Shown in pieces: positions 61,842 to 64,000 of a DNA stretch of 64,000 nt; within the stretch, counting starts at the first letter, position 1, and the number at the start of each line of letters is the position of its first letter. The translations under genes were made by a program, and so were the position numbers. The stretch is from positions 11,330 through 75,329 of IMG/VR virus record IMGVR_UViG_3300046455_000477. One strand, 5' to 3'. The stretch is from a virus. The notes below the pieces were generated by a model, which saw only the letters and a program-made list of their open reading frames with translations, ran no database searches and was not told the DNA's origin.

Positions 61842-62008
61842 GCATCGGCCTGCTGTTCTGGGTAATCTTCGTGATCGCGATACTGTTCGGCTTCTGGGGA
61901 CGCACCGAGCACGGATCGCCCTACTGGGCGAACTACAATGGGTGGGTGTTCGTCGTTCTTCTGTTCCTTCTGGGTTGGCGCGTGTTCGGCTTCGTTATCC
62001 AGGGGTGA
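61838..62008 (+). CDS. Small two-TM membrane protein (not in ORF track)
   Basis: Own translation MSIGLLFWVIFVIAILFGFWGRTEHGSPYWANYNGWVFVVLLFLLGWRVFGFVIQG*. Confidence 0.75.
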   Translation: MSIGLLFWVIFVIAILFGFWGRTEHGSPYWANYNGWVFVVLLFLLGWRVFGFVIQG

Positions 62009-64000
62009 CGCGGGTGCCTCTGCAGGAAGGATCGTCGGTTGCGCACGCGGCGGGGATCATGTTCCTCACTGACGACAGCCAGGTCCTCCTCCTGAAGCGG
62101 GGGAACGGCAGCGATCATCCGGGGAAGTGGTGCTTTCCCGGAGGGCACCAGGAGGAAGGCGAGAGCACGGAGGAGGCCGCCAAGCGCGAGGCGATCGAGG
62201 AGCTGGGGTTCCTACCCCCCGGTCCGCGGGCCGTTCTCACCCGAAGCATCGCCGATGGTGTGGACTACACGACGTTCCTGCAGCGCGTGCGTAGCAAATT
62301 CATTCCGGAGGTGGACGGCGAGCACACTGGCTTCATGTGGGTTGCGCTCGATCAGCTCGGGACCGCAGCCGACCCTCCGGAGGACACGGAGGTGCGCGCC
62401 GATCCCCCGATTCGGGGGGACGAGGAGGACTTCGACGAGTCAAAGCATCCCCGCGCTGCGGACGGTAGATTCGGTAGTAAGGGCGGCGCGGGCGGCGGTA
62501 GCCCGGTTAAGGCGCGCAGGGGGCCGATGGTAGCGGCACGATACGAGAACAAAACGTTCGTGCATCACGAGTCAGGCGAACCGCTTCCCGAGCACGTCCA
62601 GAGGATGCGGATCCCCCCGGCCTGGAGGGAGGTCCGCGTTTCCATGGACCCCAGCGCCGACGTGCGGGCGACGGGCAAGGACGCGAAGGGTCGGCCGGTC
62701 GGCATATGGTCCGACAAGTTCATGGCAACGAAGGCCGCCGAGAAGTTCGGGCGCGTCCACGAGTTGCTGGAGAAGTTCGACGGCATCCGGAAGCAGAACG
62801 CCGCCGTTCAGAAGTCGGATGATCCGCGCAGGAGGGACGCGGCGGACTGCCTGTCCCTCATAATGGAGATGGGCGTTCGGCCCGGAAGCGAGAACGACAC
62901 GGGGGCCAAGGAGCAAGCCTACGGAGCAACGACGCTCCAGGGTCGGCACGTTGTCGTGGCCGGGAGGAAGGTTTCGCTTCAGTTCGTCGGGAAGAAGGGC
63001 GTTCGCCTGAATCTCCCTGTGCCAGACGGACCGCTGGCGGCCATGCTCGTGAAGCGGATGGGGGCGGCTGGCCCGGACGGCAAGCTGTTCCCGAATACCA
63101 ACGACAAGCATCTTCTCGCCCACGTTCACACGATGGACGGAGGCGGTTTCAAGACGAAGGACTTTCGCACGCGGCTGGGAACGGCGACAGCCTACGAGAT
63201 GGTGCGGTCCGGAGCACCCCCGATCTCAGAGGAGGACTACAGGCGGCGGGTGATGGAGGTCGCTAGGGTAGTATCGGAGAAGCTCGGTAACACGCCTGTG
63301 ATCGCCCTGCAGGCCTACATCTCCCCAACGGTTTTTCACGAGTGGCGCGAGCACCTGGATGATCACGCGCGGGCGGACGACTTCGACGAGTCCAAGCATC
63401 CACGCGCGAGCGATGGAAAGTTCGGGAGCGGCGGAGGAGGTGCGCGCGGTGCGGTGAGGTCCGCCACGAAGAAGGTGGCCGGAAAGGTGAAGGGCGCGGC
63501 CCGAAGCTTCGGGCACGAGGACCACGAGGTCATCGCTCATCACTTCTCGGTGGTGCGTCCCGAGGACCGCAGCCGGATCGCCCACGGGATACACTCGGCA
63601 GCCCGGATGCTTCCGGCGCTGCTGCGGACGCACCTGAAGGAAGAGAAGCACAACGCGGTTCACGCCGCCGGAGCGCTGCGAGCAATAACGACGGGCAAGC
63701 GCCCGACGCCCGAGCAGATGAAAGGGCTCAAGGCGTTCGGGATGCGCATCGGGATGATCGGGGGGTCGCTGGCTATGGGCGATCCGTCGGGCCTGATTCA
63801 CCACGGCGTCAGTGCGGCTCTCTCGCACATCGGGATGGACGCCATCATGCACATCGCGGGCGAGCACGCCCTGGCGGCCATGACTGGGCTCGGTAAGGCT
63901 ATCGGGATAAGAGGTATGGCGAGCGCTGCAGCCGACGCAGCCGACGATGTGAGCGACGAGGACACGGAGCTCCTGCAGAAGTTCATCGAGGAGCTTGCGA
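62005..64000 (+). CDS. Multidomain head-region polyprotein: Nudix, type IB topoisomerase and further domain(s); 3' end outside window; not in ORF track
   Basis: Frame checked codon by codon with no stop from GTG 62005/62014 to the window end. Nudix box GGHQEEGESTEEAAKREAIEELG; Topo IB motifs IPPAW, GVRPG, YGATTL, FVGKKG, KDFRT, LGNT, QAYI. Confidence 0.9.
   Translation, partial: MTRVPLQEGSSVAHAAGIMFLTDDSQVLLLKRGNGSDHPGKWCFPGGHQEEGESTEEAAKREAIEELGFLPPGPRAVLTRSIADGVDYTTFLQRVRSKFIPEVDGEHTGFMWVALDQLGTAADPPEDTEVRADPPIRGDEEDFDESKHPRAADGRFGSKGGAGGGSPVKARRGPMVAARYENKTFVHHESGEPLPEHVQRMRIPPAWREVRVSMDPSADVRATGKDAKGRPVGIWSDKFMATKAAEKFGRVHELLEKFDGIRKQNAAVQKSDDPRRRDAADCLSLIMEMGVRPGSENDTGAKEQAYGATTLQGRHVVVAGRKVSLQFVGKKGVRLNLPVPDGPLAAMLVKRMGAAGPDGKLFPNTNDKHLLAHVHTMDGGGFKTKDFRTRLGTATAYEMVRSGAPPISEEDYRRRVMEVARVVSEKLGNTPVIALQAYISPTVFHEWREHLDDHARADDFDESKHPRASDGKFGSGGGGARGAVRSATKKVAGKVKGAARSFGHEDHEVIAHHFSVVRPEDRSRIAHGIHSAARMLPALLRTHLKEEKHNAVHAAGALRAITTGKRPTPEQMKGLKAFGMRIGMIGGSLAMGDPSGLIHHGVSAALSHIGMDAIMHIAGEHALAAMTGLGKAIGIRGMASAAADAADDVSDEDTELLQKFIEELA

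Follow-up and report, generated by a model that had tools for sequence, protein, structure and literature searches.

A tag-delimited Nudix-topoisomerase IB-zincin polyprotein in the head operon of a tailed phage, a candidate precursor of capsid cargo

Why would a tailed phage encode a Nudix hydrolase and a type IB topoisomerase (TopoIB) in a single open reading frame (ORF) among its head genes? This question is raised by the last two kilobases of a 64,000-nt stretch of DNA, hereafter the window, which comprises bases 11330-75329 of the 75,329-bp viral record IMGVR_UViG_3300046455_000477 (IMG/VR), the complete sequence of an uncultured phage from soil or rhizosphere. An initial annotation, made from the window alone, had noticed an ORF of more than 660 codons that runs off the end of the sequence and had proposed that its enzymes are made as one precursor in the head operon, packaged in the head, cut apart and injected together with the DNA. 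Here, the complete record and a collection of homologous proteins and loci point to a phage-type polyvalent protein, i.e. a chain of disparate enzymes encoded among virion genes, that would be loaded into the head, processed and delivered with the DNA, and a probability of about 0.6 is given to this reading. The existence of one multi-enzyme precursor in a late head operon is supported by comparison, whereas head packaging, cleavage and injection are inferred from it.

The frame is stop-free on the + strand from 61942 to 63999, which amounts to 686 codons up to the end of the window, and it is only the window that interrupts it. The record carries 127-bp direct terminal repeats at both ends, and the frame resumes at record bases 128-1602, terminating with a stop at base 1602, so that 1,177 codons without an internal stop are obtained from stop to stop. 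The part of the ORF that was visible initially (62005..64000) therefore represents only 60% of its full length, and extension beyond the window, which completed the frame at the record start, revealed a C-terminal HExxH zincin domain. The most likely start codon is GTG 62005, which is coupled to the small ORF before it by a GTGA overlap with the stop codon of that ORF and results in a protein of 1,156 amino acids (aa); the alternative start GTG 62014, located 8 nt downstream of AGGGG, would yield 1,153 aa. The automatically assigned start ATG 62059 is disfavoured, because the nearly invariant residues A37/G38 would be lost together with the first strand of the Nudix fold. As the ORF crosses the ends of a metagenomic contig, an assembly chimera or a decaying pseudogene has to be considered, but its likelihood is negligible: the stretch was found at 100% identity and without a single difference in sequencing runs of four soil or rhizosphere studies, none of them listed as an RNA run, contigs of independent runs reach beyond the window end, and the joint between Nudix and TopoIB is spanned by single contigs in three runs, as is the joint between TopoIB and the following His/Ala-rich module. 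In addition, this module aligns uninterruptedly with the metagenomic protein P0151 across the record ends, the 1,177 codons contain no stop and the catalytic residues are intact. An assembly artefact is ruled out by the contigs bridging the domain joints and by this colinearity, and the polyprotein is a real, contiguous gene. A signal of horizontal transfer was sought in base composition by comparing the GC content of third codon positions, and none was found (0.79 for the polyprotein, 0.75-0.80 for the head genes).

The modules of the polyprotein are arranged in the order Nudix, tag 1, TopoIB, tag 2, His/Ala-rich module, acidic stretch, tag 3, helical module, Pro-rich linker and zincin, in which the tags are copies of a conserved boundary motif that is described below. 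The Nudix hydrolase domain (62047..62376, aa 36-145) matches Pfam PF00293 with an E-value of 6.4e-19, and the Nudix box, which had been placed at about 62140-62208, is found at 62143-62208 (aa 68-90) as a perfect match to G-x5-E-x7-R-E-x2-E-E-x-G. All 20 homologues aligned, which show 46-57% identity, have the box residues G68, E74, R82, E83, E86 and E87. By sequence, the domain is a member of the Nudix superfamily; for its substrate class, all NCBIfam equivalog matches lie far below their cut-offs, the best reaching 42.8 bits against 245 and NudE 21 against 169. The topoisomerase (62593..63369, ~aa 213-476) is of the bacterial/poxvirus type and possesses both the N-terminal DNA-binding domain (Top1B_N_bact, PF21338, 1.6e-7, above the cut-off) and the catalytic core (Topoisom_I, PF01028, 1.6e-18, aa 259-453). 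All five catalytic positions named by the initial annotation proved exact, namely R313 (62878), K351 (62992), R409 (63166), N450 (63289) and Y459 (63316). In the match to Deinococcus radiodurans TopIB (PDB 2f4q, 3.2e-24), they are in register with the catalytic residues, and they are invariant in an alignment of 20 homologues. The intact catalytic motifs of Nudix and TopoIB are thus kept under conservation, and both activities are predicted.

The third module had been described as His/Ala-rich, a description that holds for a region of about 200 residues (Ala 17%, Gly 10%, His 7.6%), which extends from 63451 to 64000 and ~15 residues past the window end. This module has no match in Pfam, PHROG or NCBIfam, its best Atlas neighbour (0.79) does not exceed chance, and no hydrophobic stretch of transmembrane grade was seen in it. 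Conserved counterparts, likewise flanked by tags, are present in the metagenomic proteins P0151 and P0153 (E about 1e-40). The helical module that follows tag 3 consists of three helices.

The zincin domain comprises 258 residues (record 826-1599, + strand, outside the window) with the motif HEAGH, an Asp three residues beyond HExxH and a downstream Glu ligand in EMFA. Its family was collected as 148 representatives at E <= 1e-3; the HExxHxxD motif, the G-H...Y element and the Glu of E-M-F-A are invariant in alignments of 26-50 homologues. This phage encodes a second zincin in the next large gene, and no Pfam family matches either of the two or 26 relatives. An AlphaFold (AF2) model of the domain was obtained with a predicted local distance difference test (pLDDT) value of 81 and a predicted template modelling score of 0.83. 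A Foldseek search of this model against the PDB returned no match at E <= 1e-3, and with an exhaustive aligner the best match was to the catalytic domain of anthrax lethal factor (Z 10.3 over 160 residues, root-mean-square deviation 4.0), followed by Pro-Pro endopeptidases and other zincins. The likeness of the modelled domain to lethal factor is at the level of the fold; by sequence (Pfam ATLF or equivalent) it is not a member of the M34 family. A related Nudix-zincin protein in locus L040 shows a sub-threshold ATLF match of 19 bits against 27. A second AF2 model, reaching from tag 3 to the end of the protein (470 aa), showed the tag at a pLDDT of about 70 between disordered flanks and was not used. 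Since the polyprotein has its own C-terminal zincin peptidase, self-processing appears at least as likely as cutting by a maturation protease.

The boundaries between these modules are marked by the tag, whose consensus in 101 copies is [FW]-x-E-x-x-H-P-R-x-x-x-G-x-F, followed by a Gly/Ser-rich run. Tag 1 (62431..62472, + strand) reads F-D-E-S-K-H-P-R-A-A-D-G-R-F, with R-A-D / R-G-D before and a Gly-rich run after it; tag 2 (63382..63423, + strand) reads F-D-E-S-K-H-P-R-A-S-D-G-K-F and is preceded by R-A-D; tag 3 lies at record nt 226 (+ strand, outside the window) and precedes the helical module. The genome holds exactly four tags, three in the polyprotein and one in the next large gene, and these are 80-91% alike at the DNA level. 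Among 268 collected proteins, 86 contain the 101 tags, always at module boundaries. The F/W, E, H-P-R, G and F positions are conserved to 98-100%, and Asp-rich positions and often R-x-D are found just upstream. The spacing of the tag is regular as well: in 72 of 74 cases the nearest tag is located 256-315 residues before the catalytic Asn of TopoIB, and this distance holds whether the tag is preceded by a Nudix domain, a portal, DUF2213 or a short leader. The tag is described neither in the paper on polyvalent proteins (PMC5512222) nor in that on MuF toxins (PMC5576092).

The link to the phage head is provided by homologues of the two N-terminal enzymes. A census of the best 120 TopoIB homologues, which belong to the same clade (41-60% identity), identified the portal domain PF06381 in about 49 of them, and others are fused to a Mu portal, MuF or DUF2213. 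ADP-ribosyltransferases (ART), InPase, zeta toxin and 2H phosphoesterase are found as further partners, and several of these domains are well known from polyvalent proteins. Approximately 20 metagenomic proteins of 400-480 aa have the simple architecture Nudix-tag-TopoIB. P0151 and P0153 are organized as DUF2213-tag-TopoIB-tag-His/Ala module-tag-zincin, and P0154 contains DUF2213, TopoIB and zincin, with the His/Ala module not detected. Every joint of the polyprotein recurs in unrelated metagenomes. With portal, MuF or DUF2213 as fusion partners of the TopoIB clade in many uncultured phages, and a scaffold/protease-like protein as that of the Nudix clade, head loading is the most economical reading of these architectures. 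As a separate observation, a Mu-type portal-tag-TopoIB fusion in L015 (5240-6002) has its TopoIB split by a frameshift, which may represent a sequencing error or decay.

The fusion of the Nudix clade is seen in cultured relatives of this phage, which were identified by the major capsid protein (MCP; 55% identity) and include Pantoea phage PdC23, Klebsiella phages Chronis, RothC and RothD and the Yersinia vB_YenM phages. In PdC23 and Yersinia vB_YenM_29.18, the gene order is TerL, portal, head morphogenesis, a single gene of ~550 aa, a PHROG 6268 homologue and MCP. Residues 3-104 of the product of this single gene in PdC23, gp04, form a Nudix domain (34% identity to that of the polyprotein, 1e-15), and its residues 97-513 are homologous, from residue 1 onwards, to a 507-aa protein that is encoded downstream of the polyprotein (38% identity, 4e-84). 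The junction within gp04 therefore shows that a cassette of ~5.3 kb, reaching from tag 1 to the second of two small acidic ORFs, sits exactly at the Nudix-scaffold joint of the relatives. The initial annotation had stated that this position usually holds the prohead protease/scaffold gene; this is true for the relatives, and in the present phage the gene is displaced downstream (record 3466-4989) rather than replaced.

To survey this position, 22 IMG/VR loci (L019-L040) were fetched via the Nudix domain, ~17 of which share the head genes with this phage (TerL 44-64%, portal 43-63% and MCP 49-70% identity). In these loci, the bay that separates the MuF-like from the Nudix-scaffold gene is variable. 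It is empty in L027-L030, and it holds a tag-zincin gene plus an acidic ORF with homology to the acidic ORFs of this phage in L020-L023, TopoIB with a small acidic ORF in L025 and L026, a tag-ADP-ribosyltransferase in L031 and, in L040, a three-tag protein of 1,141 aa that ends in an ADP-ribosyltransferase and is followed by the Nudix-zincin protein. In L035-L037, the cargo is carried on the portal instead of the bay. The closest relative, L019, encodes Nudix-tag-module-tag-TopoIB, like this phage. The comparison of homologues for swapped domains was thus positive, with zincin, TopoIB, ART or nothing at the same place, and by sequence the bay is a variable cargo slot which holds interchangeable, tag-headed enzyme modules in this lineage.

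Taken as a delivery system, the polyprotein precursor would be built into the procapsid and processed at the tags or close to them, the cutter being either its own zincin (in cis or together with the paralogue) or a head protease of the DUF2213 type, and the freed enzymes would exit with the DNA. The ATP-independent TopoIB could then relieve the incoming genome of torsional stress or support early transcription, in analogy to the poxvirus enzyme, which is carried in the virion and is the closest functional parallel, and the Nudix hydrolase could remove a nucleotide-type metabolite or signal. Several observations weigh against this proposal. The tag is not tied to the zincin, as only 15 of the 148 zincin relatives carry one, and tagged TopoIB proteins are present in 12-kb loci that lack this zincin; for these reasons, the tag is not simply a private substrate of this peptidase. 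With its 15 conserved residues, the motif also resembles a peptide for docking more than it does a mere site of cleavage. Moreover, the polyprotein itself has no fused portal, MuF or DUF2213 domain, unlike many of its homologues, and since such a head-domain fusion is missing, its route into the head would rest on the tags or on another contact. A motif so long and so strictly conserved suggests a role in docking or addressing, and it may be conjectured that cutting takes place in the variable R-x-D which immediately precedes it.

Other explanations assign different roles to the same features. The tags could mainly be recombination joints or neutral hinges, comparable to the pre-toxin motifs of polymorphic toxins, with the polyprotein acting uncut. 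The four tag copies are 80-91% alike as DNA, modules are swapped precisely at tags between phages, and the virion RNA polymerase of N4 is packaged unprocessed despite an MPTase (PMC5512222), all of which would fit. However, tag residues are conserved to 98-100% across proteins that are only 40-55% identical, which indicates selection on the peptide itself, and a hinge does not exclude a role in processing or docking; this explanation is considered unlikely. It is rather unlikely, too, that the enzymes stay in the cytoplasm as late, unpackaged proteins for which fusion and operon position mean co-expression only, with TopoIB serving replication, concatemers or packaging and Nudix cleaning the nucleotide pool. 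The polyprotein has no structural anchor of its own, and stand-alone TopoIB and Nudix-TopoIB proteins are common, as would be expected in that case; yet dozens of phages have a portal, MuF or DUF2213 domain covalently linked to a TopoIB of this clade, the Nudix domain is joined to a scaffold/protease-like protein in relatives, and ADP-ribosyltransferases, a typical class of injected effectors, also occur in the bay.

A further explanation accepts packaging and dispenses with injection: TopoIB would act as a swivel in the head or at the portal during packaging and ejection, and the tags would be flexible tethers. Portal C-termini face the head interior, ~49 of the 120 homologues are portal fusions, and type IB enzymes, some bacterial members of which require Mg2+, need no ATP (PMC2666729). 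Against such a swivel, it provides no role for the Nudix, zincin, ART, InPase and 2H partners, which would be without substrates inside the capsid, and the polyprotein of this phage is not tethered to the portal; its probability is set quite low. Head loading followed by processing and delivery remains the preferred reading. If it is correct, tailed phages bring an ATP-independent topoisomerase into the cell, as is known for poxviruses, head cargo comes in exchangeable cassettes that are delimited by tags and occupy a defined bay among the head genes, and some cargo precursors supply their own peptidase. The tag could then also be put to practical use, both to spot effectors delivered by virions in metagenomic data and to load capsids with foreign proteins. 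A bolder proposal, which is put forward tentatively and on balance appears doubtful, is that the tag represents a universal loading and release address by which many unrelated uncultured phages insert interchangeable enzymes (TopoIB, Nudix, zincin and ADP-ribosyltransferase) into the capsid and free them for injection, with this phage as a self-processing four-enzyme version. In that case, delivery of a phage-encoded type IB topoisomerase together with the genome would be as routine for tailed phages as for poxviruses.

Several known systems share parts of this arrangement. The internal proteins and Alt of phage T4 reportedly carry a capsid-targeting sequence that is cut by gp21, and ejection proteins of SPN3US are said to be cut by gp245; in both phages, a short N-terminal signal and protease processing load non-structural proteins into the head for delivery. 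The tag differs from these signals in sequence, is much longer and is repeated inside one chain, which in addition has its own metallopeptidase. Phage polyvalent proteins contain a zincin-like MPTase as a hub domain, whose phage-type variant has an Asp three residues after HExxH and matches lethal factor (PMC5512222). The present protein resembles them in joining disparate enzymes in one chain (Nudix, TopoIB and zincin plus two uncharacterised modules, where at least two biochemically disparate domains define the class), in being encoded among virion and packaging genes and in its lethal-factor-like HExxH with Asp and downstream Glu; head loading, processing and injection are predictions for that class as well (PMC5512222). 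In contrast, type IB topoisomerase is absent from the text of that paper and Nudix appears only as a neighbour of InPase, and no Pfam family of polyvalent proteins (MPTase-PolyVal, LPD) matches the polyprotein.

Fusions of NudE-like Nudix domains to MuF, portal or a capsid-processing peptidase have been read as head-packaged (PMC9503650, section 3.5.2), and PdC23 gp04 carries a domain homologous to that of the polyprotein at the same position after the head-morphogenesis gene. Here, the Nudix domain is instead separated from the scaffold/protease-like protein by the ~5.3 kb of cassette and fused to TopoIB, and the simpler Nudix-scaffold fusion exists in the cultured relatives (PdC23, Chronis, RothC/D and the vB_YenM phages). 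As in the MuF polymorphic toxins (PMC5576092), a variable enzyme cargo adjoins a head protein and is followed by a small partner gene; unlike in these toxins, there is no direct MuF fusion and the cargo is not an evident toxin, and PMC5576092 mentions no tag, topoisomerase or Nudix. The polyprotein is in this respect no MuF- or portal-fused effector, as portal and MuF-like protein are separate genes, whereas some of its TopoIB homologues are. The TopoIB domain shares both domains and the R-K-R-N-Y residues with bacterial and poxvirus enzymes (2f4q/3m4a of D. radiodurans, vaccinia and variola TopIB 2h7f and that of Pseudomonas aeruginosa), with Asn as the fourth residue as in Deinococcus, and differs from them in being embedded behind a tag in a polyprotein of a tailed phage. 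A few cultured phages also have TopoIB genes; these lie outside head modules as far as checked, and identity to them is only 24-31%. The concept of multi-enzyme head cargo is already published, both for polyvalent proteins (PMC5512222) and for head-fused Nudix (PMC9503650). In a literature search that largely excluded subscription journals, no paper was found on a head-associated type IB topoisomerase of phages or on the tag, and the same literature yielded neither a defined cargo bay with cassette exchange nor a self-contained Nudix-TopoIB-zincin precursor. Added to this are a polyprotein that combines several tags with a peptidase of its own, and the exact insertion point relative to cultured phages.

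The polyprotein gene is part of a head operon in which TerL, portal, MuF-like gene, two tiny ORFs and the polyprotein are followed by further genes up to MCP. The portal gene (59310..60821, + strand) matches Pfam Phage_portal_3 (2.2e-12) and PHROG 146 (5e-45), and the next gene (60823..61677, + strand) matches PHROG 324 'head morphogenesis' (2.2e-30), has no Pfam MuF match and is 43-59% identical to the gene at the same position in L019-L040. It had been stated that the ORF lies right after portal and MuF; both do precede it, but the assignment as MuF-like is by PHROG 324 only, and two tiny membrane ORFs are located in between (61674-62008). The first of these (61674..61841, + strand, 55 aa) starts within the stop of the MuF-like gene, the second (61838..62008, + strand, 56 aa) overlaps the first by ATGA and the polyprotein start by GTGA, and each contains two hydrophobic stretches. 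Pantoea phage PdC23 has nothing at their position. Because stops and starts overlap and no terminator-like site was found on the + strand in a search of 57.1-64 kb, the region from TerL to the polyprotein looks like one late operon. In related loci, a GH5 cellulase-like gene (2.7e-13) is inserted between portal and MuF-like gene in L031 (2601-4301), and an intein-like insertion is found in the MuF-like gene of L026 (4410-6212) and also in the MuF-zincin protein P0174.

Outside the window, the 507-aa gene (record 3466-4989; PHROG 6216, 1e-119) precedes a PHROG 6268 gene and the MCP gene. Its product consists of a globular N-terminal domain and a long charged region, a layout that fits a protease-scaffold or scaffold protein, with the protease role being putative. 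It has no direct Pfam match and a weak match to a home-made DUF2213 (PF09979) profile; the L035 homologue (~47% identical over the N-terminal half) passes the DUF2213 threshold with 31 bits against 22. A BLASTP comparison of the 507-aa protein with the DUF2213 domain of P0151 was not significant, a PDB sequence search returned no match, and a related-locus search with this protein found none, the relatives having been reached via Nudix and MCP. The scaffold gene of L035 (6526-8958) encodes DUF6321-Nudix-DUF2213-scaffold (811 aa), and therefore further modules can be added before the Nudix domain as well.

Between the polyprotein and the 507-aa gene, the cassette continues with an acidic ORF of 68 aa (record 1602-1808), the gene of the second zincin (486 aa) and an acidic ORF of 66 aa (record 3265-3465) that is a paralogue of the first, all of them outside the window. 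In this lineage, many cargo genes are followed by small ORFs, which are acidic where the cargo is a zincin or TopoIB. By analogy with MuF polymorphic toxins, they probably act as inhibitors or chaperones and prevent enzyme activity in the cell that produces the phage. A homologue of the acidic ORFs (33% identity) follows the tag-zincin gene in L020-L023, and those after zincin genes may be peptidase inhibitors or chaperones. The second zincin protein is composed of a leader, a tag, a helical module that is 57% identical to that of the polyprotein, a Glu/Lys repeat linker and a HEFGH zincin. Its linker (record ~2270-2600) contains E-K-T-E-E-K and A-E-P-E-P-E-A-E-E-E-K-K repeats where the first zincin protein is Pro-rich. 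The leader (record ~1860-1960) reads V-D-W-R...acidic...T-P-P-D-V-V-M-M-L-G-F-D-P, and the corresponding element V-D-W-R...T-P-x-x-V-V-x-x-L-G-F-D-P is encoded as a separate ORF of 58-82 aa directly after TopoIB in L008, L013, L025 and L026 and forms the leader of the next cargo gene in L010, L012 and L014. This element may be a partner of TopoIB or a generic cargo leader.

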